Source of the DNA: a virus
Lineage: Duplodnaviria; Caudoviricetes
IMG/VR virus record: IMGVR_UViG_3300024247_000672
Span: 1 to 33,256 of that record
Direction: 5' to 3' (one strand)
DNA: 33,256 bases
Below the pieces are notes generated by a model. It was not told the origin of the DNA and made no database searches. It was given only the letters and a program-made list of their open reading frames with translations. Shown here piece after piece: positions 3,778 through 30,456 of this stretch. Made by a program: the position numbers and the translations under genes. Every line of letters starts with the position of its first letter. Within the stretch, counting starts at the first letter, position 1.

Positions 3778-5412
3778 TTACATCATCATGTTAGGATCAA
3801 TACCTTTACTTTCTTTCTCTTTAATATTAGAGATAACCGTTTCTGTAATCAACATAGTACCGGCTACAGAAGCTGCATTCTCTAAAGCGAGTCTAGTAAC
3901 TTTTGTAGGATCAATTATTCCTGCCTCCAACATATTAACTACCTCTTCTTTTCTTGGGTCGTAGCCTGCCCATGTATCTCCTTCAGAAGTTAGAACTAAC
4001 TCTTCTACGTCACCTGCATTGACATTACTGTATCCTGCGTTTTCAAGTATCTGGAAGAATGGTTTTTCTATTGATTGAATAACTATATCATATCCTGTTT
4101 GTTGGTCTTTGACTGCTATATCTCCTATAATACCTGTAAGGTACTTTGATGCGTTGAGGAGAGCAATTCCACCTCCAGGTAGTATGCCTTCTTCTAATGC
4201 TGCTTTTGTTGCATGAAGTGCATCGTCAACCCTATCCTTCTTTTCTTTCATTTCCACTTCAGTATGTCCTCCTACATGTACAATCGCTACACCTCCAATA
4301 AATGCTGCTAACCTCTCTTGTAGATTTTCAACTTCATAGTTAGAAGAACTTTCATCAATTTGAGATTTTAACTCTTCAACTCTTAATTGAATAGCTTCTT
4401 CCTCTCCTTGTGCATCTATAATAGTAGCGGTATCTTTACCTACTACTACTTTTTTAGCTGTACCTAACCAAGTAGAGTCAAACTTATCTAATCGCATTCC
4501 TTTATCAGGTGAGATAACTGTTCCTCCTGTTAGTACTGCAATGTCTTCTAGCATTGCTTTCTTACGATCACCGAATGCAGGAGCTTTAATTGCTACTGCT
4601 TGTAGTATACCTCTCATCTTATTCACTACTAAAGTAGATAACGCTTCTCCGTCTATGTCATCAGCAATAATTACTAATGATTTATTTTGTTGGGAAACTG
4701 CTTCTAAGATAGGTAAAATCTCTTTTACTTGGTTTAATCTTTTATCTGCAATAAGAATTAACGGATCTCGAAGAACAGCTTGCATTGTATTATTATCTGT
4801 AACAAAATAAGGAGACTTATAACCTCTGCTAAATTGCATTCCTTCTACCGTTTCTAGGTAGGTTTCTCCTGTTCTTGATTCTTCGATAGTAATTACACCG
4901 TCGCGTCCTACTTTATCCATGGCTGTGGAAATTAACTCACCAACTTCTGTATCGTTGTTAGCTGATATGGTAGCGACTTGTTTTAACTGTTCTTCGTCCG
5001 TAATATCTTTTGAATACTCTTTTAAATAATCTACTGTCTTTTCTACTGCATCGTCGATACCTCTCTTGATATCTACAGCATTTACTGCATTGTTCATTCT
5101 CTCGATACCCTGCTTGTAAATTTCTCTTGCTAATAGTGTTGACGTAGTAGTTCCGTCTCCGGCCTGATCAGCAGTCTTAATAGAAGCTTGTTTAACTAAT
5201 TGTGCTCCTATATTTTCTACTCTATCTTCTAAGTCTATAGATTTAGCAACTGTAACTCCATCTTTAGTTGATACCGGGTTACCTTGATCTTGTTCTATTA
5301 TAGCGTTACGTCCTGATGGACCTAATGTAGCAACAACTGCATCTGCTAATTTATTAACTCCTTTAAGTAGTTCTTCTCTTGCTTCTGATGAAAATATAAT
5401 CTTTTTATCCAT
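3778..5412 (-). CDS. groEL: Chaperonin GroEL
   Basis: [34 protein letters not shown] motifs; 544 aa. Confidence 0.98.
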
Positions 5413-5713
5413 TTACTTCTTCTTTAACTGTTGCTAAAATTTCTCTATCCTGTACTATGAAATACTCTTCTCCTTCAAAGTCAATACGTAATGTACCAAT
5501 TTTAGGGACTAATACTATATCTCCAACGGATACATTTACTGAAATAAACTGGCCAAATTCTGATTGTCTACCAGAACCTATTGCAAGCACTTCGCCCATT
5601 TCAGGTTTTTCTTTACCCATATCTGGGATTACTATGTTCCCATACATCTGCTCGCCTTCATCTATTGGCTTAAGTAGTATACGGTCGTTTTGTGGAATAA
5701 GTCTTTTACTCAT
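5405..5713 (-). CDS. groES: Co-chaperonin GroES
   Basis: LIPQNDRILL, IVIPD..KEKP..GEVLAIG.G, VGDIV, EILA motifs; adjacent to groEL. Confidence 0.96.
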   Translation of the reverse strand: MSKRLIPQNDRILLKPIDEGEQMYGNIVIPDMGKEKPEMGEVLAIGSGRQSEFGQFISVNVSVGDIVLVPKIGTLRIDFEGEEYFIVQDREILATVKEEVNG

Positions 5714-5738
5714 GTATAACTGTTTTTATTTATTAAAT

Positions 5739-5749
5739 TAATATACGAA
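5739..5749 (-). promoter_or_regulatory. Promoter motif class A upstream of groES
   Basis: TTCGTATATTA with TTTG upstream. Confidence 0.6.
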
Positions 5750-5767
5750 CTATTTTTCGAAAATCAA

Positions 5768-6264
5768 ACCCTAGAGCGGATAAAACCTATTTAATTTTCA
5801 AAGATCTTGGTGCAGATCCTTTTGCAAACGGAATATCAATCTTCAACAAACCGTTTACAAAGTTTGCTTCAGCTTTTGATAAGTCGTATTTGCTATCGAT
5901 TTTCCATCCTAGGTTAAAGGAACGTTTCGCTATACCTCTGTGTAGGTATTTTGTTTCTTCCTTAACTTTGGATTTTTCGTAATTTACCTTAAGGTTGTTT
6001 CCATCTACAATAATCTCAATTTCTTCTTTTGGGATTCCTGTACAAGCAATATCTATCTGAACTCCGGATGGAACTTCGATAACGTCTACTGGATGGGCTA
6101 CTTTGGTGTCGTGTGCTAGCGGAGAAAATTTGCCAGCTTCTTGAAAAAGATTTCTAACTAAAATGTCGAACGGAGACCGTTCATTTAAAAATAATGTACT
6201 CATATCATATAGTGTTGCGAGTGCCTAAGCTACTCATGTTAATAAAAAAAAATCGCTCTAGGGT
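5768..6264. repeat. 11-bp perfect inverted repeat flanking hsp20
   Basis: ACCCTAGAGCG at 5768-5778 and CGCTCTAGGGT at 6254-6264. Confidence 0.8.
5787..6203 (-). CDS. Small heat-shock protein (Hsp20/alpha-crystallin)
   Basis: YLHRGIAKRSF and A.FVNGLLKIDIP motifs. Confidence 0.95.
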   Translation of the reverse strand: MSTLFLNERSPFDILVRNLFQEAGKFSPLAHDTKVAHPVDVIEVPSGVQIDIACTGIPKEEIEIIVDGNNLKVNYEKSKVKEETKYLHRGIAKRSFNLGWKIDSKYDLSKAEANFVNGLLKIDIPFAKGSAPRSLKIK

Positions 6265-6300: not shown

Positions 6301-8610
6301 TTAATGTCCTTCTTTCCAATTGTCAGCTATTTCAGGAGGTGCTTTCAACGTAACTCCAGGTAGTACTAGGTTATTCTCCATTATCTCTTGTACTATAGGA
6401 GCAAAGTCTTTTGCTTGATCTTCTCTAATATTAATTATAAGTTGATCATGAACCTGCGCTTGTACGATTGCATCGATTTTCATCTCTTTAGCTTTACGGT
6501 TGATCTTAAGTGCTGCTCTATTCACTACAGATGCTGCTAATGACTGAAGTTGAAAGTTTAAGCAGTTATTCAAGCCGTTTCTATAATCTCTATATACCTG
6601 CAGTACTTGGTCCTTACCGTATTGCTCAGATAGTTGATTTCTAAATCTCCAGTCCATTATTCTTTCTCCGAACTTCTCATATATTTTAGTAACCTTAGGT
6701 AAGTGTCTAATACGTCCTACATAGTTTTTAATGTACCCATGAGCTTTAACTTGTAATCTAGAATCTTCTCTCCATTTCTTTAGATCAGGAAAACCATCTA
6801 GATAACCTGCTACTAGTTTTTCTGCTTCTTTAGTAGGGATACCTAATGTCATACCTAAAGCATACGCCTCCATTCCGTATGCAATACCTAATGAATAGGC
6901 CTTAGCTTGATTACGTTTGACAGGATCTAACTTCTTTAAGTAGTTGTCAGCTTTTTTATCCGGCGATACTCCTTTCAGTTCTTCAGTTTGTATAGCTACG
7001 GTTGAGTAGAAATCCCAGCCATTATTAAATATCTCCTGTAATTTAAGATCCCCTGTAACTGAAGCAAAGCAATGAGGCTCTAATGATTCGTAATCCGAAT
7101 CTATTACCTTTCTATCTTTTCCAGCAATTAAAAATGCTCTAACAATATTAGTATATTTAACAATGATCGGAGCATCTTCTCCTTCTTCTTTAGGTTTAGG
7201 GAGCTGTTGAGCATCCGAACCGTAACGACCTGATACAGTACCGTGTTGTTTAAAGTAGAAGTAGTATCTACCGTCTTCGCTATTATCTATAAACCTATCA
7301 ACATACGTAGATTTAATCTTAAGTAGTTTATTATATATTCTCAAGTTTTCAGCCCAAGCATAGGTCTTAGCTAAGCTCTCTAACATATCCATATCAAACT
7401 GAGCTTGACCTTTTCTAGTCTTACTCTTAGCTTTAATACCCATATAGTTAAATACAATCTCACCTAAGTGTTTTTTAGATTGTATATTGATATACTCTCC
7501 ATCATTCTTCTCTTTCCAAAGCGACATAGAAATACGGGCTATTTCTATTTCCTCTAATACTGAATTGTCACCTGTTAGTAGGAATTGCTTTGCAGGACTA
7601 TCTTCTAGCTCTTCGATATTCTTTTGAGTAAGAGAATATTTACCAGTCTTTTCCGATTTAGGTAAAGATAGTGAATATCTTTCAGCAAGCTTTTGAGCCC
7701 AGCTACCTTTATGGTTAGGAGGAAAATTATCGAATGCAGTATTCATAACCCATTTTTTAGCTTCAGAAGTTGCTAATAAGCTCTTCATAACTACTCCTTT
7801 ATTCTCCTGTAAGTCTTTAACTATATTATCATGAGTTTCTTGTAATAGGTCCATATCTAAGTCTACTCCGTAGTTTTCCATAGGAATAGTAACTTCTCTG
7901 TATATCGGCATTACCTCATCTTCAAAAAAGAACTTCTCTAGATTCTCTTCCTTAAGTTTAGTAAGGAAGTAGTTACATAAGCGAAGAGTTAAATCCGTAT
8001 CCGCAGATGCATACTTAGATAGTATATCAAGATCTGCTTTATAAATTTCAAAATTAGTTTTTGTAACCTCTCCTCCGTTTTTCTTTATAGAATCCTTAAG
8101 TTCTATTTGCTCTTCATTAGCTGCTTTTTCTACATCTAATCCTATATGCTCCTGTACTGATATAGCTAAGGCTTTTAAACCGAATACTCCCATACCAGCG
8201 CCTTCTTCCTGTACAGTATGAACTAGTAGTAACGTCTCTACCCACAGATCTTCTAATAAATCTACTCCAAAGTAGTTATTAATAAACCTACAGTCAAATG
8301 AAGCATTATGCATTACCAGCTTCTTACCTTTTAACATTTTAAGTAGGTTCTTAGAAATCACTTCTGTACTTTGTCCGTTAATTTCCTGTACTTGCAATTC
8401 ATTTGCTTCATGACTCCATACAAGAGTCGGTAGGTAAAACCCTATACCTTCTGCTCCGGAAATAGACCACCCGACTATCTTTCCTTTTCTCATATTTAAC
8501 GAAGTCGTTTCCGTATCTATAGCAATCACTTCTGATTCTTCTATATGTTGGAACATTAGCTTTAACGTCTCTGAGTCCTGTACTGTGTAATACTTTTTTT
8601 CTATTTGCAT
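6301..8610 (-). CDS. polA: Family A DNA polymerase with 3'-5' exonuclease
   Basis: ExoI AIDTETT, ExoII HNASFD, ExoIII YASADT; motif A DYESLE, motif B RNQAKAYSLGIAYG, motif C VHDQL. Confidence 0.96.
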   Translation of the reverse strand: MQIEKKYYTVQDSETLKLMFQHIEESEVIAIDTETTSLNMRKGKIVGWSISGAEGIGFYLPTLVWSHEANELQVQEINGQSTEVISKNLLKMLKGKKLVMHNASFDCRFINNYFGVDLLEDLWVETLLLVHTVQEEGAGMGVFGLKALAISVQEHIGLDVEKAANEEQIELKDSIKKNGGEVTKTNFEIYKADLDILSKYASADTDLTLRLCNYFLTKLKEENLEKFFFEDEVMPIYREVTIPMENYGVDLDMDLLQETHDNIVKDLQENKGVVMKSLLATSEAKKWVMNTAFDNFPPNHKGSWAQKLAERYSLSLPKSEKTGKYSLTQKNIEELEDSPAKQFLLTGDNSVLEEIEIARISMSLWKEKNDGEYINIQSKKHLGEIVFNYMGIKAKSKTRKGQAQFDMDMLESLAKTYAWAENLRIYNKLLKIKSTYVDRFIDNSEDGRYYFYFKQHGTVSGRYGSDAQQLPKPKEEGEDAPIIVKYTNIVRAFLIAGKDRKVIDSDYESLEPHCFASVTGDLKLQEIFNNGWDFYSTVAIQTEELKGVSPDKKADNYLKKLDPVKRNQAKAYSLGIAYGMEAYALGMTLGIPTKEAEKLVAGYLDGFPDLKKWREDSRLQVKAHGYIKNYVGRIRHLPKVTKIYEKFGERIMDWRFRNQLSEQYGKDQVLQVYRDYRNGLNNCLNFQLQSLAASVVNRAALKINRKAKEMKIDAIVQAQVHDQLIINIREDQAKDFAPIVQEIMENNLVLPGVTLKAPPEIADNWKEGH

Positions 8611-9614: not shown

Positions 9615-10526
9615 TTACTGTCTTAAAGTTTTTTCTATTCTATAATCTGTATTTGTAAAGAAGTCTGGTATTAAACTTTGATGAGTTGCTCTTATAGGAT
9701 TAATATCTAATCCACCTCTTCTAGTATATAGACATGATACCATTAACTGTTCCGGCTTATAAGCATCCATTAAGTGTTTAAACACCATTTCACAAATCTC
9801 TTCATGGAAATGACTTACAGTCCTATGACTAACAATATATTTAGCAAGTGCATCTGCTGCAGGAATATCTCTTCCTTTAATTTTAATAAATACATCTCCC
9901 CAATCTGGCTGGTTAGTTACCCTACAGTTAGATCTAAGTAAGTTAGATTTTAACTTAATCTCTATAGGTTCATCAACTCTATCTTCTATTAATAGTTGAG
10001 AAGAATCTGATTTATATTGTATAAAATCTATTTGATCTAAATCTACTATGTCTCCAAGATCTGAGTAGCCTTCAAATGATATAGCTTTACCTTCATCTGA
10101 AGACTCATAAAAGGAAACTGTAGTACTAGTTTCTAGTAACTCATCTAAATCTCTTTTTACTCTAGCTTCTATAACTGCCATACAGTCTGCTGAGTTATCT
10201 CCTATATGGGTCATATTAAATGAGTTGAGATATAATTTAATTGACTTCGATTCTACGTGGTATTCACTATCCGAAGGACATACAATTTTTAACATACCTG
10301 AAACCGGTAATCCTTTAGAAGTAATTGCTGATACTTCATAACAATTCCAAGTATCTACTCCTACAAAGCTTTCAGATGTAAGTCCGTAACCTTCTCTATT
10401 TAAGTACCTAGGTACTTTTACTAATAATTCAGGAGAGTAAGTATCCTTATAACCATCTCCTCCTACTTTTCCTAAATGCTTAGAAGCAATATCAACTACT
10501 TCTTGATAATTTTTAACGTCTGCCAT
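9615..10526 (-). CDS. queF: NADPH-dependent preQ0 reductase QueF (bimodular, E. coli type)
   Basis: VESKSIKLYLNSF QueF motif, SNCRVTNQPDWG catalytic Cys/Asp, FHEE, YTRRGGLDINP. Confidence 0.95.
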   Translation of the reverse strand: MADVKNYQEVVDIASKHLGKVGGDGYKDTYSPELLVKVPRYLNREGYGLTSESFVGVDTWNCYEVSAITSKGLPVSGMLKIVCPSDSEYHVESKSIKLYLNSFNMTHIGDNSADCMAVIEARVKRDLDELLETSTTVSFYESSDEGKAISFEGYSDLGDIVDLDQIDFIQYKSDSSQLLIEDRVDEPIEIKLKSNLLRSNCRVTNQPDWGDVFIKIKGRDIPAADALAKYIVSHRTVSHFHEEICEMVFKHLMDAYKPEQLMVSCLYTRRGGLDINPIRATHQSLIPDFFTNTDYRIEKTLRQ

Positions 10527-10530
10527 AATT

Positions 10531-11049
10531 TTAATTAATATATTCTAATATTTGTTCAACTCTCTGCAATGGTGACCCTGTTACAGTTAGGTAGGGTTTT
10601 CTTACTCCATCAAGAAGTAATTTAAATTCTTTATCAATCTTTACTCTCCACTCTTCATTAACGCTCCTTACTCCGTCGTCAACCGATTTAAATTCAATAG
10701 GAAAGTAAATATAATGTGTATATTGTTTTTTAACTCTATTCCAAGTATCTTCAATATACGAGTGACTTGGAGCATCTATACCTGGCATAAAATTAGAATA
10801 TACCATTAGGTCCATATAACATCTATCAAGTAGTAAGTCTCCTGGACGTAGTAAAGCTTCTAAATGAAAGCTACTAATAGCAAGCTGAGTTTTTGAAGTG
10901 CCTTTCTCGTTAATAGGAAATCCATACTCTGCTACTGATCTAGTCGATTCATTTATGAACTCGTATTTAGGTAGTTTATTTTTAAGTAATTCGTAAACCG
11001 TAGTCTTACCCGTACTACTTGCTCCTACTAATGCAACTCTATTTACCAT
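10531..11049 (-). CDS. P-loop nucleoside monophosphate kinase (AAA_28/NadR/TMK-like)
   Basis: VALVGASSTGKTT Walker A; LLLDRCYMD. Confidence 0.8.
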   Translation of the reverse strand: MVNRVALVGASSTGKTTVYELLKNKLPKYEFINESTRSVAEYGFPINEKGTSKTQLAISSFHLEALLRPGDLLLDRCYMDLMVYSNFMPGIDAPSHSYIEDTWNRVKKQYTHYIYFPIEFKSVDDGVRSVNEEWRVKIDKEFKLLLDGVRKPYLTVTGSPLQRVEQILEYIN

Positions 11050-11071
11050 AAAACCTTTTATTATTTATATA

Positions 11072-11082
11072 TAATATACGAA
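11072..11082 (-). promoter_or_regulatory. Promoter motif class A
   Basis: GTTG...TTCGTATATTA upstream of the kinase-queF unit. Confidence 0.6.
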
Positions 11083-11090
11083 ATTATAAA

Positions 11091-11633
11091 TTACTTTCCA
11101 ACTACTTTATTAAGAAAATCTACCCAAAGAAATAGAGATCTATCCCTAGTTACCTTCCACATCTCTTCTTCCGTAATATTGAAAGCATTAAATCTTTCCT
11201 CTGCTAGTATTTTACCTTCGTCTACTCCTGCATCTACTTTATGGAGTACGCATCCCATAACTGGGTATTTACCTTCAAATGCTCTAATCTGTGGATCTTT
11301 ACCTTTAAGTTCCGGATACACTGTAATAAGTCCTGGATGTCCATTAAATATGCTGTACTTTTCACATATAGAAGGAGGCATAATTCTTAACCATCCGTGT
11401 AGTGTTATTATAGGATCCTTATAGAAACCTATAACTTCTTCATAATCCTCTACTAGGGGCTTATTTATTGTTGTTGCTAATAAATTCTGTTCTAGTAAAT
11501 CGCTATTAATCTTCCTAATATTTGAAGGCCTTTCGTTAGTTATTATAGCATCAGGCCAGTAGCCTAATGCATTAGCTATGTCCACTATTTCCGAACCAGT
11601 TTGACTGAAGAATGCTATCCAGGGTTTTCTCAT
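11091..11633 (-). CDS. dpdN: PurN-like formyltransferase, putative dPreQ1 formyltransferase DpdN
   Basis: FSQTGS, LHGWLRI, NGHPG, GCVLHKVDAGVDEGKIL (GAR transformylase fold); located between dpdA and queF. Confidence 0.75.
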   Translation of the reverse strand: MRKPWIAFFSQTGSEIVDIANALGYWPDAIITNERPSNIRKINSDLLEQNLLATTINKPLVEDYEEVIGFYKDPIITLHGWLRIMPPSICEKYSIFNGHPGLITVYPELKGKDPQIRAFEGKYPVMGCVLHKVDAGVDEGKILAEERFNAFNITEEEMWKVTRDRSLFLWVDFLNKVVGK

Positions 11634-11821
11634 TTTATTATATTTTCTATACCTTCGTAAGAAACAGGGTACAGGTGTCTTCCACTTCTTATACTATATT
11701 TAGTATTAAAATTAGAGAAGTTCACATTACCTTCGCTTATTGTTTCTATCACTCCTACTTCTACTTGGCCAATAAAACTAAATTTTACTTTATCTCCTAC
11801 CTTATACTGCTCTCTTTCCAT
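11630..11821 (-). CDS. Small hypothetical protein (SH3-like, YKVGDKV)
   Basis: 63-aa ORF overlapping both neighbours. Confidence 0.6.
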   Translation of the reverse strand: MEREQYKVGDKVKFSFIGQVEVGVIETISEGNVNFSNFNTKYSIRSGRHLYPVSYEGIENIIK

Positions 11822-12602
11822 TTGTAAGCCATTTAAATTTATGAATATTATTTAAAATCAAATTCGTATCTTCCACTTCAAAATTAATAAGCTCATGAAG
11901 CTTTTGTCTTTCTTTTGAGAATAATCCATCTGAACCGTATGGTATACCTTTAATGCCATGTACGACAGGATTACTAGTATCTAGAGAATAAATCCAAGGG
12001 TATTGAGAATAGTATGAAAACTCTTGAGGTAAGCCACAGCCTAGTAAGTGATGAGGTTTATTTTCATTTATAATACCGTCTCTTACTAAATCTCCTAGTA
12101 GCTTAATACGTCCTAGCATCCAACTAACGTACTTGTTAGGATGAGGTATAGAATCGGTATAATACGAATAATCAAAAGATATTGCGATCATATCTACATC
12201 GGCAATTTTATCCATATATTCGTAACATGCTACTATCTGCTTGTATGTCTTACCCTGTACTACACCTATCTTTTTACCGTACACTGATTTTGAATAGTGC
12301 ATATTCCAGCTAGCCATCTGACTCATAGTTTTCTTAGTATCTTCTAATGCATCAGGTACTATGTACCAAGTTGGCCTTAACTCATTAATCCAGTTTGCAA
12401 ACTTATCAGCATCAAATGCTTCTTCTAATTCAAAAATAGAGTTATCTAATATAACTTCTCTACCTTTTTTAACTGCTTCTTTAAACTGGTCTAAGTACTC
12501 TTCATCTTCTTCTAATAAATGTACTAATGCGTAATCATAGTCTGTGTACTTCTGTACATCGTTAAAAATACTTTTAGGACTTTCATGAGCTATTTTAATC
12601 AT
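11802..12602 (-). CDS. dpdA: TGT-fold 7-deazaguanine transglycosylase (DpdA, probably DpdA3-type)
   Basis: ILDNSIFE, IVPD, GVVQG, HHLLG, SLDTSNP match TGT barrel motifs; lies in the que cluster; subfamily is inferred. Confidence 0.8.
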   Translation of the reverse strand: MIKIAHESPKSIFNDVQKYTDYDYALVHLLEEDEEYLDQFKEAVKKGREVILDNSIFELEEAFDADKFANWINELRPTWYIVPDALEDTKKTMSQMASWNMHYSKSVYGKKIGVVQGKTYKQIVACYEYMDKIADVDMIAISFDYSYYTDSIPHPNKYVSWMLGRIKLLGDLVRDGIINENKPHHLLGCGLPQEFSYYSQYPWIYSLDTSNPVVHGIKGIPYGSDGLFSKERQKLHELINFEVEDTNLILNNIHKFKWLTNGKRAV

Positions 12603-12783
12603 CTAATTTTATATCGTTTATTGAGTTACGTAATTCTGCCATTGCTTTTTCAAACTCCTCTGCATACTTTTCTACTTCTGGAGTACTTGCTTCTTTAACT
12701 GCTTTAATTGCTATAGATAGAGGAACCATATCCATTTTATGGCTATCTACATATATTATATGATCCTCTAACTTAATTGGCAT
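12595..12783 (-). CDS. Hypothetical protein
   Basis: 62-aa ORF coupled to neighbours. Confidence 0.6.
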   Translation of the reverse strand: MPIKLEDHIIYVDSHKMDMVPLSIAIKAVKEASTPEVEKYAEEFEKAMAELRNSINDIKLDD

Positions 12784-13300
12784 TAAACAACTTTTTTAGG
12801 TTCGGTCTAAAGTAGTTGATAGACTTCATTACTTTTTTGTCCCTAGATCTATAAACGACGTATCTACTATTAACCTTTTCATAATGACACGGCTCACCCT
12901 GTTCTTTAGCTCGTAAGGTGACAGTCTGTAAGGCTTCTTCCTCAGTAGTGCAAGATTTTGACATATTACTGTCTTGTACCTCTTGATACGCTGGCCATAT
13001 CTGATCCTTAAGGCCGTGTAGCATAACACCGTTCCCAAGGGACACATAAGTAATATCGCACAAAGCATCCAAAACTTCCACGATGTCTCCGTTTTCGCAA
13101 GCTTGTCTATATTCCTCCAATTCTTCGAGTATAAAGTCGTAAACGAATTGCCATTCTTTTTTTTCTGGGATTGTTGGTCCATAGTTGTTCGGTTTTCCAA
13201 AAGTAGTATTAAATGTTTCTACTTCGCTAACAAAAGGTACATAGTCTTTTTCAGACATAGCATCTAATATAGGGAATAATGTTAATTGCTTTCCTTTCAT
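12773..13300 (-). CDS. MazG-like / PRA-PH family NTP pyrophosphohydrolase
   Basis: ILEELEEY, EVLDALCDITYV, EVQDSNMSK. Confidence 0.85.
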   Translation of the reverse strand: MKGKQLTLFPILDAMSEKDYVPFVSEVETFNTTFGKPNNYGPTIPEKKEWQFVYDFILEELEEYRQACENGDIVEVLDALCDITYVSLGNGVMLHGLKDQIWPAYQEVQDSNMSKSCTTEEEALQTVTLRAKEQGEPCHYEKVNSRYVVYRSRDKKVMKSINYFRPNLKKLFNAN

Positions 13301-13301
13301 T

Positions 13302-13505
13302 TTAGTATACTTTTATAATTCTTGATTCTGCAAGGCTAATAATCTTAAAGTTCGTTTCACTTAACTCTTCTAGCATCTTATATGTTTTAGCTTCTGCTTC
13401 TGTTCCTGTCATTGCATCTACTAGGTATATTTCTTTTACTTTCTGTACTCTTCCTCTATCGTTTTCTCTTTCGAATTGAGTAGTAACTTGCCAATAGTTT
13501 GTCAT
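13302..13505 (-). CDS. DUF4494-like protein
   Basis: G..QKVKE.YLVDA.T.TEAEA pattern of the Bacteroidota DUF4494 family. Confidence 0.7.
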   Translation of the reverse strand: MTNYWQVTTQFERENDRGRVQKVKEIYLVDAMTGTEAEAKTYKMLEELSETNFKIISLAESRIIKVY

Positions 13506-13520
13506 AATTTAATTTATTTA

Positions 13521-14234
13521 TTAATGTTTACAAATACTTGCTAATTCTATATTTTTATAGAACTCTGCTTTTGCTGAGTCTTCGTTAAGAAATGCTCCTG
13601 TTAATTTCGCTGTTTGCATAGATGCTCCTCTATGTTTAACTCCTCTACATGATACACAAGCATGAGTTGCATTAATCTGTACTGCTACTCCTAGATTTCC
13701 TTCACATATCTTATCTACAGCATTATGAATAGCTACAGTTAACTGTTCCTGTATAGCTCCTCTTCTACCGAATTGCTCTACTATTCTATTTAACTTAGAT
13801 AACCCTACTACTTTACCGTCTTCTGAGGCTATATAGGCAATACTGACTGTACCGCTAATGGCTTGATGGTGGTGTGAACACATAGAGGTTACAGGTATAT
13901 TACTTTCCTGTACAATACCATCGTATCCATCTGATGGGAATGCTGTAATTCTGTCTAAAGGATTATACCTTCCTGCCCATAGGTCGTTTACGTAAGCTTT
14001 AGCTACTCTAAATGGAGTATCTGATGAGTTAGGATCTTCTTTATAGTCACAGCCTAGAGCGGTTAAAAAATCTGCATAAGCTTTTGCTGCTCTTTCTATA
14101 ATTACTTTCTTTTCATGTTCAGTTAACCTAGCTTCAGGTCCTTCTAATTCTTGCTTTGCAGCTAATTGACTTGATATACCATTTGCATATCCTGCTTTTA
14201 CTAATTCTGTTCCGTCTATAAACTTTTTAGGCAT
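13521..14234 (-). CDS. folE: GTP cyclohydrolase I
   Basis: DTPFRVAK, SMCSHH, VGLSKLNR, IQEQLT, HACVSCRGV; start moved to ATG 14234 because the upstream 12 codons overlap a riboswitch-like leader. Confidence 0.96.
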   Translation of the reverse strand: MPKKFIDGTELVKAGYANGISSQLAAKQELEGPEARLTEHEKKVIIERAAKAYADFLTALGCDYKEDPNSSDTPFRVAKAYVNDLWAGRYNPLDRITAFPSDGYDGIVQESNIPVTSMCSHHHQAISGTVSIAYIASEDGKVVGLSKLNRIVEQFGRRGAIQEQLTVAIHNAVDKICEGNLGVAVQINATHACVSCRGVKHRGASMQTAKLTGAFLNEDSAKAEFYKNIELASICKH

Positions 14235-14242
14235 AAATTTTA

Positions 14243-14269
14243 ATTGTTTTTTTGAGGTTCTACGACTCA
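14243..14269 (-). ncRNA. preQ1-I riboswitch-like aptamer in the folE leader
   Basis: UGAG-UCGUAGAAC-CUCA-AAAAAA-CAAU: P1 stem, U...AG..C loop, A-rich tail ending in C. Confidence 0.7.
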
Positions 14270-14281
14270 TTAATATAATAA

Positions 14282-14292
14282 TAATATAAGTA
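14282..14292 (-). promoter_or_regulatory. Promoter motif class A upstream of the folE leader
   Basis: TTTG...TACTTATATTA. Confidence 0.55.
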
Positions 14293-14299
14293 ATTTATT

Positions 14300-14704
14300 T
14301 TAATTCTCCAAATAATTTTGAATAGTATTTGAATCTTTTTTCTCCCAAGGGTACACTATCCATCCAAAATCATCGTCTATTTCCTCTGCATAGTAGTCGG
14401 GTTTGAATACCGAAGTATTTTTATAATGTAGTGCTGCATACTTAGGAGTATCCAAGTCTTTTTCTAATTCCTTAAATGTTTTTCCTGTATCTGCTATATC
14501 ATCTATTATAAGCATATTAGGGTAGTGGTTACTCATATAGGGCATGTACTGTATGTCAAACCTATGTGAAAACATTATTGCTAATATCGTACCTCCTCTA
14601 GGTACACCTGTAACTAAGCTTACCTTTCCTTTACATTTATCGTATACTTTATCTAATAGTTCGTTAACCTCATCCCAGGTTATAAAGATTTTCTTTGTTT
14701 CCAT
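14300..14704 (-). CDS. Type I purine phosphoribosyltransferase (Gpt/XGPRT-like)
   Basis: ITWDE, GVPRGG, LIIDDIADTGKT (PRPP loop), WIVYPWE. Confidence 0.88.
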   Translation of the reverse strand: METKKIFITWDEVNELLDKVYDKCKGKVSLVTGVPRGGTILAIMFSHRFDIQYMPYMSNHYPNMLIIDDIADTGKTFKELEKDLDTPKYAALHYKNTSVFKPDYYAEEIDDDFGWIVYPWEKKDSNTIQNYLEN

Positions 14705-15724: not shown

Positions 15725-15851
15725 TCTCTAAGTATTTTTTTAATTTATCACATAAAACCAAAACATCATCTGGTTCCATAGTAATTGCGCAACATGTATT
15801 AATGTTTTCTGCTATTGTTTCTAATATTTCTAATGCTTCTTCTTGATTCAC
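15717..15851 (-). CDS. Small hypothetical protein (44 aa, GTG start)
   Basis: Not in ORF track; MNQEEALEILETIAENINTCCAITMEPDDVLVLCDKLKKYLENG; overlaps the queE stop and the next start. Confidence 0.55.
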   Translation of the reverse strand: MNQEEALEILETIAENINTCCAITMEPDDVLVLCDKLKKYLENG

Positions 15852-16639
15852 TATACTTCACGTTGATCTTCGAATGCAATAATGTGCGGTCTCCAAGTCA
15901 TTCTGTAACCGTTATCTCTTACCCAATCGAATACTAATGGGTAGGATTTAAATAACCCTTCTCTAGAATCTCCAGCTGGCATAAACCATACTTTCTCTTG
16001 AGGTACATCCATAATCTTAATAAAATTAAGAATTTCTTCTAATGAACCTTTATCCTTACCGTCCCATACTGGCTTAATATGGTAATCTGAATGGTATGAT
16101 ATTGATTTAGATATAGCATCATAATTAAGTCTAAACTTATTATGTCTTTTTACCATTCTTTCGTCGGTAATGGATCCTTGAGGAGTTTCAACACCAACAA
16201 CGGGGACACTATTACTAAACTTAGGACTAATGCTAAGCAAATTAATAGGATAATCGGTAGGTAGAAAATGAGATCCCTCAGTTTCAATAGTAATGAATAT
16301 ATTGTTTTCATGTGCAAAGTGTGTTAATTCGTTTACTAGAGCAGGATGCATTGTTGGTGATCCACCGGTTAGCATCATTTCTTTTATATGAGGATTATCT
16401 TCATATGCTTTAATAATGTCTTTAAAATTAAAGTGTCCTTTTTCTGGATGTATACTTGTATACCAGCTATCACACCATCCTCCTTCTCCAAAGTAACATC
16501 TATGTGTACATCCTGTAGTTCTAATCACTACTGTTGGATAACCAGCTCTTGATCCTTCTGACTGTACTGCTGTATATATTTCTACGATAGGTAAATTTTT
16601 ATCGTAGTCTTCTATTCTTTTTAATTGTTTATGCGACAT
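15851..16639 (-). CDS. queE: 7-carboxy-7-deazaguanine synthase (radical SAM)
   Basis: EIYTAVQSEG..AG.P.V.IRTTGCTHRC...WCDS, LTGGSP, IETEG, SISPK. Confidence 0.93.
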   Translation of the reverse strand: MSHKQLKRIEDYDKNLPIVEIYTAVQSEGSRAGYPTVVIRTTGCTHRCYFGEGGWCDSWYTSIHPEKGHFNFKDIIKAYEDNPHIKEMMLTGGSPTMHPALVNELTHFAHENNIFITIETEGSHFLPTDYPINLLSISPKFSNSVPVVGVETPQGSITDERMVKRHNKFRLNYDAISKSISYHSDYHIKPVWDGKDKGSLEEILNFIKIMDVPQEKVWFMPAGDSREGLFKSYPLVFDWVRDNGYRMTWRPHIIAFEDQREV

Positions 16640-17093
16640 AAATTGCACTGTTTTTAGCGTGTTCTCTAAATTCTACTTTTGTTATCTTAACTCTTCCGTC
16701 AGTTTCTGCTTCGATAAATGGATTTATACTATCGTAAATAAATTTAGCAAAGCTCTCTGCTCCGGTAGCTGGAATAACTCGTACTTGAGCTACTTTAGCT
16801 AAATCCATTTGCATAAAAGATTCCTTAAATGGATCGTCTTCAGCTACTAAAAAGGTATGGTCAAACATATAATCCATCCATGCTTTAGGAGTCATCTTTT
16901 CTATAGTTCCTTTAGCTCTTTTCATTCCTCCGAAATCCCAGACCCAATTTCTCTCATCTAACTCCCCTTCAAACCATATCTTAAAAGATACTCCGTATCC
17001 GTGTAGTTTAGAGCAATGTGTTGTTGTTGCTTTCCATTGACGAAATACAGTAGAGTATCCGTCAAATACTTTTGTTGATTGAAATTTTCCCAT
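16629..17093 (-). CDS. queD: 6-carboxytetrahydropterin synthase
   Basis: HCSKLHGY, WVWDFG, FDH, AES.A, VEFRE. Confidence 0.92.
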   Translation of the reverse strand: MGKFQSTKVFDGYSTVFRQWKATTTHCSKLHGYGVSFKIWFEGELDERNWVWDFGGMKRAKGTIEKMTPKAWMDYMFDHTFLVAEDDPFKESFMQMDLAKVAQVRVIPATGAESFAKFIYDSINPFIEAETDGRVKITKVEFREHAKNSAIYVA

Positions 17094-19133: not shown

Positions 19134-19922
19134 TTATAAATATGCAGATAAAACGTTTTCAACGTGTTTTCTTGCTACCTCGTAATCAACTTCTCCAGTT
19201 TCATCCTCATACTGTACGGGATCCTTTCTGCCAAGAGCAATAAAAGCCTCAATCCTCTCAACACTAGAAGCAGACTTATAATCACTATTTCCCGAAGGAT
19301 AAGGCTTATAAGAAGTATTTGTTCTTTTATATACTTCATTAAAATCAATTTTTAATTTAGCGCATAGTATTTCTCCATCTTGCAAAATACCAAATTTATC
19401 AGTATTTAAATAAGGTGTAAAGTAGCCTACTCTATCCGCATCCCAATTTCCCATTCTAAAAGCTGCATCATCTGCATCTCTAAATTCTTGTCTACAATCA
19501 GGATAAACTGCATGGTCACCAGCATGAATACCTAAAGCAATATCACAAACACCTTCTGTTTTATTTGCTACAGATAATGCTACTGCTTGAGTAATAGAAG
19601 CAAACATTTTATTTCTATTAGGAACAACTGTTTCTTTCATATTATCTTGCTCATAATGTCCTTCAGGTACATCTTTACCGCCTTCAGTTAATGCTGAATC
19701 TAATAGATCTACTAATCCATCTAATTTAATTTGACGATAATTTACTTTGTGACCTTTAGTTGCAAGGTAATCAATTAATTGTTGAGCTCTTTCAAGTTCA
19801 ACTCTATGTTTTTGACCATAGTCAAATGAGATACCTGTTACTGTATCATACTCCTCGATAGCTCTTAACAATAGGGTGCTGCTATCCATTCCACCACTTA
19901 AACTAACTACACAATGTGCCAT
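19134..19922 (-). CDS. queC: 7-cyano-7-deazaguanine synthase
   Basis: SLSGGMDS PP-loop, FDYGQKH, VVPNRN, YPDCR. Confidence 0.95.
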   Translation of the reverse strand: MAHCVVSLSGGMDSSTLLLRAIEEYDTVTGISFDYGQKHRVELERAQQLIDYLATKGHKVNYRQIKLDGLVDLLDSALTEGGKDVPEGHYEQDNMKETVVPNRNKMFASITQAVALSVANKTEGVCDIALGIHAGDHAVYPDCRQEFRDADDAAFRMGNWDADRVGYFTPYLNTDKFGILQDGEILCAKLKIDFNEVYKRTNTSYKPYPSGNSDYKSASSVERIEAFIALGRKDPVQYEDETGEVDYEVARKHVENVLSAYL

Positions 19923-21533: not shown

Positions 21534-23249
21534 TTATCCATCACAGCTAAGACAATCTTCAGATGTCCTAGAACCTATATCTCCATTAATTACTGAATCA
21601 GTTCTAAGGTAATATAGTGTCTTAATTCCCAATTTCCAAGCTGTCTGGTGTACTAGGTTAATAAATTTAGGTGAATCGGTTGGATCAAAAGCTAGATTTA
21701 ACGACTGTGTCTGATCAATATACTTCTGTCTAACTGCTGCTTGTTCCACTAATGCTAATTGATTTACCTCTGCAAAAGTTAGAAAGATAGGCTTATCCTC
21801 TAAAGGCATAATGTCTTCTGGTAGGTTTGCTACAGACCCTCTATCTTTCATAATGGAATCCCATACTTCCTCTGTATTACACCCTCTTTCTTCAAAGTAG
21901 CTTTCTAGTGCCGAGTTTTTTCGTATAAACGTTCCTTTTGCTGAATTAAAAGTATATACATTAGCTGGTATTGGTTCTATGCCGGCTGATACTCCTCCTG
22001 AAATTGTACTATTAGATACAGTCGGTGCTATAGCCATTAAGTGAGTATTTCTCATACCTGTACCTTTACACCAAAGTGGCTCTCCGTACTCATCTGCTAA
22101 CTTTCTTGATGCTGCTTCTGCTTGATTTTTAATTTGAGAAAAAATCTGATGTGTGTATGATGTTGCTGCTATAGATGAAAATGGTATTCTTTCATTCTGT
22201 AATAATGTATGCCATCCTAGTACTCCTAGTCCAATAGCTCTACCTTTTTTTGCTGATCTATGAGCTCTAATAAGGGAGTCTCTTCCAGAAGTCTTAGCTA
22301 GAAATTCTTCTAAAACTCCGTCTAAAAAGTATATCGATGTCTCAATTAAATCTGAGTTTTTCCATTCATGCCATTTTGTTAAATTAACTGAAGATAAGCA
22401 GCAAATGAAGCTATGTTCTTCATCTGTATGTAGAGTTATCTCTGAGCATATATTAGTCATGCTTACATCTAAGTTATTTTTAACATAGGCTGGTGGATTG
22501 TCATTATTTACATTGTCTTTAAACATTATATATGGCTCTCCAGTCTCAACTCTAGATTTCAGGATTGTTACCCATGTATCCATAGCCTCAGGGTCTCTCC
22601 GCTCTAGTTTTTGCATAAAGTCATCATCCACTACGACGCATTGGTGTAGGTTTAGACACTGTCTATTAGGATCTCCTTTAGGTCTACGTATTTGTAAAAA
22701 TTCTTTAATATCCGGGTGGTTAATATCCAGGTTTACTGACGCTGCTCCTCTTCTAACTGCTCCTTGATTAGTCGCTAGTATTGTTGAATCGTAAATTTTA
22801 GACCACGGTATTACTCCTTCTGATTGGCCCATATCTCCGTTTCCTATTTCTACTCCTCTACCTCTAATACGGGATAACCCTATACCAACACCGCCGCCAA
22901 GGGAGGTAAGTCTCATTAGTTCGGCATTGGTGAGACCAATACCTCGAATTGAATCGGGCGTATCAATTCCAAAACATGAGATGGGTAATCCTCGGTCGGT
23001 TCCGGTGTTAGAAAGTACAGGGGAAGCTAAATTTAGCCATCCTTTCCACATATAGCGGAAAAACTTATTAGCTAGATCTGGTCTATCCAGTCTTTTTGCA
23101 ATTGTATCTGCTACTCTTTTATATGCTTTTTTAGGTGTTTCATCTGTCAGCAAATATCCTTTTGATATTGTTGCCAATGATACTTCGTTCATCCACTCTG
23201 GATAATCTTTACCTGCTTCCCATTTGGAAGTATCTACTACTATACTCAT
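21534..23249 (-). CDS. nrdA: Class Ia ribonucleotide reductase alpha subunit (no ATP cone)
   Basis: LPISCF, TNICSEI, AIAPT, KTLYY, C-terminal CLSC. Confidence 0.96.
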   Translation of the reverse strand: MSIVVDTSKWEAGKDYPEWMNEVSLATISKGYLLTDETPKKAYKRVADTIAKRLDRPDLANKFFRYMWKGWLNLASPVLSNTGTDRGLPISCFGIDTPDSIRGIGLTNAELMRLTSLGGGVGIGLSRIRGRGVEIGNGDMGQSEGVIPWSKIYDSTILATNQGAVRRGAASVNLDINHPDIKEFLQIRRPKGDPNRQCLNLHQCVVVDDDFMQKLERRDPEAMDTWVTILKSRVETGEPYIMFKDNVNNDNPPAYVKNNLDVSMTNICSEITLHTDEEHSFICCLSSVNLTKWHEWKNSDLIETSIYFLDGVLEEFLAKTSGRDSLIRAHRSAKKGRAIGLGVLGWHTLLQNERIPFSSIAATSYTHQIFSQIKNQAEAASRKLADEYGEPLWCKGTGMRNTHLMAIAPTVSNSTISGGVSAGIEPIPANVYTFNSAKGTFIRKNSALESYFEERGCNTEEVWDSIMKDRGSVANLPEDIMPLEDKPIFLTFAEVNQLALVEQAAVRQKYIDQTQSLNLAFDPTDSPKFINLVHQTAWKLGIKTLYYLRTDSVINGDIGSRTSEDCLSCDG

Positions 23250-23260
23250 AAATTATTTTA

Positions 23261-24244
23261 TTAAAACATTGTTGCTGCATCCCATTCCATATGCCCTTTG
23301 GCGTAGTTTGTTACTCTGTTCGCAAAGAAATCTGTATGCTGTTTACCTGCAATTACTGCGTCAAACCATTTCATTGTTTTTAGAGCACCCTTATCTATTT
23401 CCTCAGAAGGAACAATAGGCTTTAAACCTAAATCTCCCATTTTAGTATTCACTCTATGGCGAATAAAGTTCTTTAATTCGTCTTTCTTTAAGTTCTCTAA
23501 ATCTCCCATCTCAAATATCTTATCAATGAAATCGAATTCTAACTTCAAAGCATCTTTAGCAGCTGATTCAATATCTGCTATTAATTCTGGTGTTTTGAAT
23601 TCTGGATGTTCTTCCATAAGTGTTCTGAATAGCCAGCATCCAGCATCAGAATGTAAGCTTTCATCTCTTACTGACCATTCAACTATCTGCCCTACTCCTT
23701 TAAGCTTATTTCTCATTTTAAATGAAAGAAGTACTGCAAAAGAACTAAATAGATTTACCCCTTCGGTAAAAGCAGAAAATATAGCTAGAGACTTTGCTCT
23801 ATCGTGCCAATTAGGAGAACCATCATGACCGTCTCTCACTTCCATCAGACTTTCAATCTTAGCCATAGTTGCTTCATCTTCTAAAAACTCAGCAAAGTTG
23901 TCTAATCCTAATTGTTCGTTCAATAGGGAGTATGCTTCTGCATGAATAGTTTCACTAGAACCTAGTGTTGTACCCATCATAATAATTTCCGGTTTTCTAA
24001 ACCACTTAGTTACTAAAGTAGACCAGTAATCATTTACTATAGTTTCTGTTTGAGCAAATCCTTTTAAGATTCCTCCAATCACATTTTTTTCGTGATCTTT
24101 TAAATTACTCGCCCAGTCTGTCACATCTTGTGACATTGGTACTTCTGTATGTAGCCAGTGAGCTTGTTGTTGTTTAAGCCAAAAATCATATGCTTTTGGG
24201 TATTCGAAAGGTTTGTAGACAATGCGTTCGTCGAGTAAACTCAT
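23261..24244 (-). CDS. nrdB: Ribonucleotide reductase beta subunit
   Basis: ETIHAEAYS, EGVNLFSSF, RDESLH, DFF..RVTNY. Confidence 0.96.
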   Translation of the reverse strand: MSLLDERIVYKPFEYPKAYDFWLKQQQAHWLHTEVPMSQDVTDWASNLKDHEKNVIGGILKGFAQTETIVNDYWSTLVTKWFRKPEIIMMGTTLGSSETIHAEAYSLLNEQLGLDNFAEFLEDEATMAKIESLMEVRDGHDGSPNWHDRAKSLAIFSAFTEGVNLFSSFAVLLSFKMRNKLKGVGQIVEWSVRDESLHSDAGCWLFRTLMEEHPEFKTPELIADIESAAKDALKLEFDFIDKIFEMGDLENLKKDELKNFIRHRVNTKMGDLGLKPIVPSEEIDKGALKTMKWFDAVIAGKQHTDFFANRVTNYAKGHMEWDAATMF

Positions 24245-29130: not shown

Positions 29131-30456
29131 TTATAACACTAAATTTGTGCTGTATTTAAATTTTACAGGGTATTTCCCTTGTTTTTCCATTATTGTTTGT
29201 ATCTCTGAGAGAGTATCTTTACCGTCTTCTTTACTAAAGTCAAATAAAATTGCATCGTAGGTATATAACGTAATAAATGTCTTTTTATCTCTGAGATATT
29301 TTAGTATATCTTTTAATATAGTGATATTATTTGAGGTTTCCAACGATTGCATCATATAATTCATTAGCTTAGCTGGGTTCATATCCTGGAGTTTATTAGT
29401 AAATGCTTTTCCAGATTGTGGGTTATGTACTTGCCCTGTTTCAATATATAGCTTCCACATTGCATCTATATATTCCTGTACTTCTTTAAATATTTTAAGA
29501 TTTTTATGTTCTTCTGGTATCTTCCCGTATATAGCATGAAAATTAATCTGTTTTGCTCTATTGTACTCTTCTTCGGATATATCCTGCTTACCGAAATACT
29601 GTTTAGCTAACTGTTTATGAGCAGATTCATTAGTTAAGGGGTAATCTAACTGTTCAGCTAATAGTCTTAAGTGGTACCCGTCGAAGTCGAATTCTACAAA
29701 GAAGTCATTCTGCGGTTTAAAACACTGTCTATGTTCGGGTGTTTTAGGAATTGCTGCAAAATTAACAGAATTAAAAGTATTTGTCGGCCTGGAGGTACTA
29801 TTGTATAGGTTGTATTCGGTATAAACAGTATTATCTTCTGTATTATAAAGTGGATTTTTAGGTTTAAATAATTCATTAAATCCATCGTATACAATTCCTA
29901 CACCGTTCTGCTCCAATAGGTAAAATACATTTGTGGTTGTATTATTATAAAAGTCAAAGCCGTCTGGTATTGGAAGTTGTAGGTGTTGTTCTATCTGATT
30001 AAATATATTCTCACATCTCTCGTAGAGTTTGACTATAGGGATTATTCTATTTATGTTATTCTTCTCACTATGTGTACGGTAGTACCAGTCGATAGTTGTA
30101 TTTGAAGTAGAGTACTCTAACCTTTTGTAATTATTCATAGAATATACTAAAGATATATCTATAGCTCTCTGTAGATTAAAGTAGTAGAGAAGTGTTTTCT
30201 TATTTAATGTATAAAGTGTTTGTGCTTTATTTAGAATGTTGTAGATACGTTCTTTATCTACATTAAGTCCATCCTCATGAGATATAGGAACAAAGTACCC
30301 TTGCTTATCTCCTACAACTCTAACATACACTCCTACTGTGGAAGTTAATTTAGAGTGGTAATAGAAGTTGGTACTAACTACATCTACGTATAGAGGGGAA
30401 TTAGTTTGACTTTCTAACCGGTCGATTTGATCTTTTGATTCTAATATATAAAACAC
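29131..30456 (-). CDS. Second, divergent family A polymerase-like protein (degenerate exonuclease domain)
   Basis: TSRP (TGRL-like), motif A EFDFDGYHLRLLA, motif B AKQINFHAIYG, NYMMQS, motif C YTYDAILFD. Confidence 0.82.
   Translation of the reverse strand: MFYILESKDQIDRLESQTNSPLYVDVVSTNFYYHSKLTSTVGVYVRVVGDKQGYFVPISHEDGLNVDKERIYNILNKAQTLYTLNKKTLLYYFNLQRAIDISLVYSMNNYKRLEYSTSNTTIDWYYRTHSEKNNINRIIPIVKLYERCENIFNQIEQHLQLPIPDGFDFYNNTTTNVFYLLEQNGVGIVYDGFNELFKPKNPLYNTEDNTVYTEYNLYNSTSRPTNTFNSVNFAAIPKTPEHRQCFKPQNDFFVEFDFDGYHLRLLAEQLDYPLTNESAHKQLAKQYFGKQDISEEEYNRAKQINFHAIYGKIPEEHKNLKIFKEVQEYIDAMWKLYIETGQVHNPQSGKAFTNKLQDMNPAKLMNYMMQSLETSNNITILKDILKYLRDKKTFITLYTYDAILFDFSKEDGKDTLSEIQTIMEKQGKYPVKFKYSTNLVL

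Follow-up and report, generated by a model that had tools for sequence, protein, structure and literature searches.

The locus described here raises the question of when a bacteriophage replaces guanine with a 7-deazaguanine: in finished DNA, or in the nucleotide pool before replication. The stretch analysed, hereafter the window, corresponds to a virus record of 33 kb (33,256 nucleotides; IMG/VR record IMGVR_UViG_3300024247_000672) that is ~20% complete, and it encodes a 266-amino acid guanine transglycosylase, DpdA3 (11802..12602, minus strand), together with a P-loop (deoxy)nucleoside monophosphate kinase (10531..11049, minus strand). A reading made from the sequence alone had taken the kinase, a phosphoribosyltransferase (PRTase) and a MazG-like enzyme in the locus as signs of a pre-replicative, pool-level route, entered either through the PRTase or through DpdA acting on dGMP. 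Comparative genomics lends support to that route and to the second mode of entry: the best reading, to which a rough probability of 0.55 is attached, is that DpdA3 swaps guanine on dGMP, that the kinase phosphorylates the product, and that the family A DNA polymerase PolA incorporates it. The support comes from two features of the kinase: it accompanies DpdA3 but not DpdA1 or DpdA2, and it moves with DpdA3 in an exchangeable cassette. From these distributions we infer both the use of dGMP and the specificity of the kinase.

The window locus is an ordinary member of the known DpdA3/DpdN system that forms fdPreQ1, the formylated deoxynucleoside of preQ1. FolE, QueD, QueE, QueC, QueF and the formyltransferase DpdN are all encoded in the window. 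DpdA3 is 78% identical over its full length to that of Flavobacterium phage immuto_2-6A (immuto), in which the gene order from the PRTase to polA (gp60-72) is the same as in the window, and the corresponding identities for the MazG-like enzyme, kinase, QueF and DpdN are 74%, 69%, 64% and 53%. The DNA of immuto was reported to contain fdPreQ1 only and no dG, equivalent to 100% replacement of G (Cui et al. 2023, bioRxiv 10.1101/2023.04.13.536721; NAR PMC10516641), and by orthology the window phage is predicted to replace dG with fdPreQ1. In the same work DpdN was named on the basis of a predicted function, and phage QueF proteins complemented E. coli queF (bioRxiv 10.1101/2023.04.13.536721).

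Post-replicative insertion was proposed by Cui et al. for all phage 7-deazaguanine modifications (bioRxiv 10.1101/2023.04.13.536721; PMC10516641). Applied to this locus, DpdA3 would swap preQ1 into finished DNA and DpdN would formylate it, while the kinase, dUTPase and PRTase would be routine genes of nucleotide supply and salvage that cluster with those for replication. Every TGT (tRNA-guanine transglycosylase) or DpdA enzyme characterised in the surveyed literature acts on a polymer, and thyA or thyX is often found near DpdA3 loci, both of which favour this possible, if somewhat doubtful, account. Yet the DpdA3 phages are precisely those that are fully substituted, the other DpdAs reaching 30% at most (bioRxiv 10.1101/2023.04.13.536721). 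The model was moreover extended to DpdA3 without activity of that enzyme on DNA, since no activity of DpdA3 was obtained when DNA was assayed in E. coli (bioRxiv 10.1101/2023.04.13.536721), and 100% substitution would require every G to be flipped before packaging.

Linkage of a kinase to DpdA3

A total of 307 DpdA3 loci, repeats on the same contig included, were assigned to 38 clusters at 70% identity and compared with a control of 30 DpdA1/2 loci in 14 clusters, comprising those of 9g, VH7D and BUCT-ZZ01, 17 IMG/VR loci and ten hand-picked from 50 listed of 245 records; both DpdA2 assignments in the control were made here from position and motif. Among evaluable clusters, defined as those with a 3-kb flank on both sides of dpdA, 22 of 26 for DpdA3 had a kinase gene no more than 3 kb away, as against one of 12 for DpdA1/2, the hidden Markov models for kinases having been built from DpdA3 loci. 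A family-blind test for a P-loop motif gave 18/26 and 0/12, respectively (Fisher p 5e-5), and with clustering at 50% identity 7/11 and 0/8 (p 0.013), although the clusters are related rather than phylogenetically independent and these p values overstate independence. In a metagenome scan a kinase was present at 42 of the 45 dpdA3 loci that had at least 1.8 kb upstream. Loci without dpdN still had a kinase. By way of contrast, the neighbours at DpdA1 loci were sliding clamps, polymerases and ParB-like genes. Gene co-occurrence, one of the checks that had been suggested for the pool-level route, accordingly showed a linkage to DpdA3 in excess of the DpdA1/2 control, a pattern that post-replicative exchange leaves unexplained.

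The slot is occupied by several kinase families. An AAA_28 kinase is present in the window (PF13521; phrog_2107; PHROG thymidylate kinase, E 7e-24), in immuto and in Campylobacter phage CP220; an AAA_18 kinase in the group of Cellulophaga phage phiST, fused to DpdL in two loci (L085 and L086); a phrog_761 kinase in Weizmannia phage Youna2; and, at the same place in the BSP7 group of Bacillus phages, a gene annotated as a putative thymidylate kinase. In T4-like loci (L177) a DUF3310/gp1.7-type gene lies between dpdN and queF, DUF3310 corresponding to the PHROG category 'nucleotide kinase' and having been linked to T7 gp1.7 (PMC9339283), while in Brevundimonas phage StAshley a DNMK gene is located ~6 kb from dpdA3. 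The P-loop kinase directly adjoins dpdA3 in both phiST and CP220, for which 100% replacement of G (by dDG and dADG, respectively) is in print and which differ from the window in base and replicase; phiST also carries a PF03819 MazG gene, and a PRTase gene 17 kb away. The phiST gene CGPG_00066, which by position fills the kinase slot, was set aside by Cui et al. as unshared with other phages, and neither 'kinase' nor 'phosphoribosyl' occurs in their main text (PMC10516641).

The window kinase profile matches not only thymidylate kinases but also deoxynucleoside and NadR/ribosylnicotinamide kinases, a breadth that would suit exchange at some other level of the pool, with DpdA3 acting on dGTP, dGDP or deoxyguanosine, or else on DNA as well as nucleotides, and the kinase serving as a nucleoside kinase or a recycler of modified nucleotides. 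The ADG nucleoside was found in the cytoplasm of CP220-infected cells (bioRxiv 10.1101/2023.04.13.536721), an observation that also speaks for exchange on dGMP, and action on dGTP would render unnecessary a dedicated dGTPase, of which there is no clear sign here. However, the DNMK and gp1.7-type replacements are annotated as monophosphate kinases, and such a route is regarded as improbable.

A further line of evidence for exchange on dGMP is the replacement of the module as a unit. Relatives sharing PolA (69% identity) carry in its stead a cassette consisting of a Dcd/Dut-like gene, dpdL, an AAA_18 kinase, folE and a phiST-type dpdA3 (L344, L346 and many more), and some exchanged loci keep two copies of folE, one resident and one incoming. 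Neither the MazG-like gene nor a kinase of the window type occurs anywhere in the complete dDG-type sister genome G007, whereas both are present in 3/3 complete fdPreQ1-type genomes. The kinase and the dNTPase lie inside the exchanged cassette and the PRTase outside it. Such exchange is what a base-specific kinase predicts, and it is left unexplained by insertion into finished DNA. The dDG-type cassette was recorded in an Immutovirus-like backbone at L344:6261-9019 and in L362, L370, L383, L398 and L416.

A number of observations weigh against so reading the linkage. Hitch-hiking within a block could also cause the exchange of cassettes. A control in the form of a dpdA3-free clade was sought through PolA, but among the best 80 of 213 matches every locus with enough upstream DNA had dpdA3. 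Four of the 26 clusters had no kinase within 3 kb (the L207 group, L190, L239 and L243); in the L207 group the dpdN-kinase-queF unit is displaced ~7 kb from dpdA3 with the kinase still beside dpdN and queF, but an AAA_28 search of the 140-kb L190 fragment gave no match. StAshley was not evaluable, and its kinase would fall outside the 3-kb limit. DUF3310 is less specific as evidence because it also lies 7-10 kb past polA in many loci of the window type, and occurs at a DpdA1 locus as well. Genes for kinases and for NTP pyrophosphatases are in any case common in phages: homologues of the window kinase were found in 89 Streptomyces phage records (H30-H84), in which this AAA_28 kinase often adjoins a 'methyltransferase' and for which no DpdA3 match was obtained.

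Physical association was considered as well. Prediction of a DpdA3-kinase complex returned a score of 0.01, which was counted neither for nor against, and fusions of the two proteins were absent among the top 150, 4 and 120 matches listed. The DpdA3 fusions that were seen involved DpdN (two; P0193 and P0213), QueF (two), a PF18909 domain (one), a NUMOD3 endonuclease-like part (one) and unassigned or other parts; those to DpdN and QueF show coupling, not timing.

Some variant loci were also recorded. A GNAT-domain gene lies between dpdN and the kinase at L237:6139-7359, and two DpdA3 proteins (P0122 and P0227) bear extra parts judged GNAT-like by eye, so that further acylated derivatives of preQ1 are possible. 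A second small NTP pyrophosphohydrolase, phrog_4856, is inserted between dpdN and the kinase at L092:9509-9799 (also in L008-L010 and L013), and the T4-like locus L172:6572-8231 has two tandem dpdA3 paralogues of 265 and 289 amino acids.

Fold and substrate of DpdA3

Pfam gave no match for the dpdA product, and single-sequence PDB searches with DpdA3, the MazG-like enzyme and the kinase returned nothing significant. An AlphaFold (AF2) model of DpdA3 with a mean confidence (pLDDT) of 90 was a bare TIM barrel, for which the top 50 Foldseek matches were all TGTs. Alignment by VIA-align gave Z 18.9 and a root-mean-square deviation of 2.8 over 235 aligned residues with archaeal TGT, and Z 18.0 and 3.2 Å over 235 of 413 residues with bacterial DpdA (7UI4); TGT/DpdA folds ranged from 17.6 to 18.9, as against at most 15.5 for unrelated barrels. 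Residues D53, D84, G117 and D208 were invariant across 11 diverse DpdA3 proteins, and by motif position rather than residue-level superposition the three aspartates correspond to Asp95, Asp130 and Asp256 of DpdA, which serve as acid/base, base-binding residue and nucleophile (PMC10164549). The exchange chemistry looks intact because these catalytic aspartates are both matched and invariant.

Whether that chemistry is directed at a polymer or at a nucleotide is a separate matter. Some 180 of the 413 residues of bacterial DpdA (7UI4; PMC10164549) have no counterpart in DpdA3, and in the model the insertions that make its basic DNA surface appear to be among them; the window enzyme is barrel only, with a net charge of -9. 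Net charge was more negative in 15 DpdA3 proteins than in 13 DpdA1/2 proteins (p 0.005), but the ranges overlap, and small size is not diagnostic, since DpdA1 proteins span 240-433 amino acids and some (240 and 266) are as short as DpdA3. Size and charge were for these reasons set aside as weak discriminators. The closeness of the fold to TGT and DpdA would suit action on finished DNA, and the DNA-acting DpdA1, DpdA2 and bacterial DpdA share the TGT barrel and aspartate motifs with DpdA3; their substitution is partial. The modelled structure neither demonstrates nor excludes a nucleotide substrate.

The PRTase, the MazG-like enzyme and the replicase

All named open reading frames (ORFs) of the locus lie on the minus strand, to which the coordinates below refer, in a single tightly packed run transcribed in the order queC, queD, queE, a nuclease gene, the PRTase, folE, DUF4494, the PRA-PH/MazG-like gene, a 62-amino acid ORF, dpdA, a 63-amino acid ORF, the formyltransferase, the P-loop kinase, queF, three short ORFs and polA. 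Profiles confirmed the initial placing of the PRTase beside folE, the identity of the formyltransferase, and the position of the kinase between that gene and queF.

The Gpt-like purine PRTase (14300..14704, 134 amino acids; PF00156 E 3e-6), 29 bp from folE, matched the xanthine PRTase model NF006613 at E 2e-10, below the equivalog cut-off, and its nearest solved proteins were purine PRTases; the invariant residues R36 G37 G38, D68 D69, D72 and G74 include a type I phosphoribosyl pyrophosphate (PRPP) loop. In principle the enzyme could itself be the point of entry, converting preQ base and PRPP to a ribonucleotide for subsequent use by the kinase, the phage ribonucleotide reductase (RNR) and polymerase, with DpdA3 in a secondary role. 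The gene matched 14 of 50,697 phage records, and is tied to the deazaguanine pathway because 11 of those 14 carry a DpdA3-type gene; an HPRT-like type takes its place in 33 of the 216 main-cluster loci, and an RNR (21534-24244) is encoded 7-10 kb from the cluster. Against entry by this means, a PF00156 search of the whole CP220 and Youna2 records gave no match, even though 100% dADG is in print for CP220. The PRTase is also the least conserved enzyme gene (40% identity to immuto gp60, the others being 53-83%), it lies outside the exchanged cassette, and several dDG-type loci have none between queE and that cassette. A PRTase is found, too, at the DpdA2 locus of BUCT-ZZ01 and at a single DpdA1 locus, and DpdA3 retains its invariant aspartates. 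The proposal that the PRTase converts preQ base to nucleotide is consequently viewed as very unlikely. The same distribution better fits the other role that had been envisaged for it, the recycling of guanine: the PRTase is likely to be accessory, salvaging released guanine into the GTP used by FolE. Such salvage fits either timing of modification and would equally suit guanine released from DNA.

The MazG-like gene (12773..13300) was described initially as lying just upstream of dpdA; it is indeed upstream, but a 62-amino acid ORF (12595..12783), kept in part of the clade, intervenes. Its product is an all-alpha NTP pyrophosphatase of the PRA-PH/DR2231-like type (PF01503 E 9e-10) and a candidate dUTPase and/or dGTPase, with invariant acidic residues E59, E60, E63, D78 and D82. 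The nearest solved relative of its profile, at a weak E of 0.011, was DR2231, a dUTPase. In immuto and in G004-G006 the MazG-like gene is present and a trimeric dUTPase absent, whereas in L328 (a record 29% complete) and G007 that position is taken by a gene of the trimeric dUTPase fold, and a MazG-like match was not found. On this sequence evidence the simplest function common to the gene and its replacement is that of a dUTPase, behaviour that also accords with the ordinary supply role envisaged under post-replicative exchange.

Removal of dGTP, the role originally assigned to the MazG-like enzyme, is a possible function and no more: the protein resembles DR2231 weakly, and it and trimeric dUTPases exclude one another. 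Sanitising of the pool is on the same grounds at least as likely. Also to be set against the pool-level route are the matching of the MazG-like query to 264 phage records, and the lack of a clear candidate for a dedicated dGTPase. Of 23 evaluable DpdA3 clusters, 14 had a dNTPase within 5 kb, as against one of five evaluable controls, but none was detected within that distance in the other nine, and the 14 include an HD-domain gene beside CP220 dpdA3 that was rejected as a dGTPase on account of its fusion to an AAA_33/polynucleotide-kinase domain. A Pfam dNTPase also lies beside DpdA1 in R26L. Two points nevertheless keep a dGTPase role possible. In phages with 2-aminoadenine (Z) genomes, the dUTPase homologue DutZ and DUF5664 cleave dATP and dGTP (PMC12884076), and (d)GTPase activity belongs to MazZ (PMC8342488). 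In addition, a phiST-type DpdA3 (P0368; a single cluster on a 5.4-kb contig) carries at its C terminus a dATP/dGTP diphosphohydrolase domain (PF18909, E 1.5e-28), a fusion that modification of finished DNA leaves unexplained.

The likely replicase is the family A polymerase encoded by polA (6301..8610; PF00476 and PF01612; 70% identity to immuto gp72). The initial reading had placed an RNR and two polymerases nearby; PolA is ~2 kb away and the RNR at the distance given above, but the second polymerase (29131-30456, 441 amino acids) lies 14 kb away and is a partial PolA match only, with the altered motifs DFDGYHLR, KQINFHAIYG and TYDA. Conserved at 51-65% in 5/5 clade genomes checked, whichever modification module was present, it is not counted as belonging to the system. 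Window PolA scored 64.9 and 19.1 bits with the DpoZ models NF038380 and NF038381, whose cut-offs are 500 and 350 bits. A selective polymerase, also raised initially, is not indicated: control is more likely to reside in the nucleotide pool than in a special polymerase because DpdA3 co-occurs with PolA, PolIII-alpha and PolB-like replicases. Directly downstream of polA lie genes for groEL, groES and Hsp20 (3778-6203), groES and groEL being at the same place in immuto. Smaller genes of the locus comprise a DUF4494 protein (13302..13505; PF14902), with an equivalent at the same position in immuto, and the 63-amino acid ORF (11630..11821), which is patchy across the clade.

The proposed route and its parallels

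In the proposed sequence of events, free preQ1 would be made by FolE (13521..14270; PF01227), QueD (16629..17093; PF01242), QueE, the CDG synthase (15851..16648; profile matches), QueC, the preQ0 synthase (19134..19922; PF06508), and QueF, a bimodular preQ0 reductase (9615..10526; PF14819 and PF14489). DpdA3 would then exchange preQ1 for the guanine of dGMP, and the PurN-like DpdN (11091..11633; PF00551; 53% to immuto gp67) would formylate either the preQ1 base or dPreQ1-MP. The kinase and host nucleoside diphosphate kinase would yield the triphosphate, to be incorporated by PolA, while the PRTase would return released guanine to GMP/GTP and so feed FolE. The MazG-like enzyme would be the phage dUTPase, and may in addition cleave dGTP to dGMP, both removing dGTP and supplying DpdA3.

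The pool idea is not itself new: according to Hutinet 2019, a modified-dGTP route for Campylobacter phages was proposed by Crippen 2019 (PMC6884629), so that the idea was raised in 2019 for those phages and set aside in 2023. A literature search, from whose coverage subscription journals were mostly absent, located no paper assigning DpdA3 a nucleotide substrate. What appears new relative to the literature found is the proposal that DpdA3 is a transglycosylase working at the level of dGMP, served by a kinase that is cognate and exchangeable; it is judged slightly more probable than its negation. The chances are about even that DpdA3, a TGT-barrel enzyme, has departed from polymers and makes up a portable cassette, together with its own kinase and a dUTPase homologue able to cleave dGTP, that rewrites G before replication.

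Were DpdA3 to use dGMP, complete replacement would be explained, as would the failed E. coli assays, which would have lacked both a cognate kinase and any depletion of dGTP. The TGT fold would gain a small-molecule substrate, and a short gene set would be available for fully deazaguanine-substituted, restriction-resistant DNA in vivo. The published post-replicative view covers all phage 7-deazaguanine modifications, DpdA3 phages included.

Related loci were noted in cultured phages. In the Brevundimonas phages StAshley (L278:6975-7775; ON529865.1; STASHLEY_00090) and MaInes (ON529866.1), an unannotated DpdA3-like protein, uncovered through the PRTase search (hhalign probability 94.8%), is encoded between queC-queD-queE and polA, followed by genes for RNR, a dNMP kinase, FolE and the PRTase; both genomes are predicted to be highly deazaguanine-substituted. 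Youna2 (L004:7935-8705) and the Bacillus phages BSP7 (L279:7001-7789), BSP19 and BSTP5/8/10/12 have queC-queD-queE-folE, a kinase, a DpdA3-like gene and polA, the dpdA3 of phages of this type being unannotated or mis-annotated; an IMG/VR scan seeded with Youna2 gave no matches. In Synechococcus phage BUCT-ZZ01 (L277:6828-8171) a glycosyltransferase-like gene lies between folE and the DpdA2-like gene, making a glycosylated deazaguanine possible.

If the proposed route is correct, fdPreQ1, dDG and dADG genomes would represent a purine-pool substitution parallel to the Z-genome, in phages of Bacteroidota, Campylobacter, Bacillus and Brevundimonas. In Z phages (PurZ/MazZ/DatZ; DmtZ/DutZ/DUF5664) synthesis likewise takes place at pool level, a dGTPase supplies dGMP, and dUTPase homologues have broadened to dATP and dGTP (PMC8342488, PMC12884076). 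Exchange by DpdA3 at the level of dGMP can be likened to the action of DmtZ, which by another fold carries out base exchange for Z on a dNMP, dAMP (PMC12884076), unrelated enzymes filling the same role across these systems (PMC12884076, PMC8342488). The window differs from the Z systems in having no PurZ, in a TGT barrel where DmtZ has a nucleoside deoxyribosyltransferase (NDT) fold, and in a PolA that falls far below the DpoZ cut-offs.

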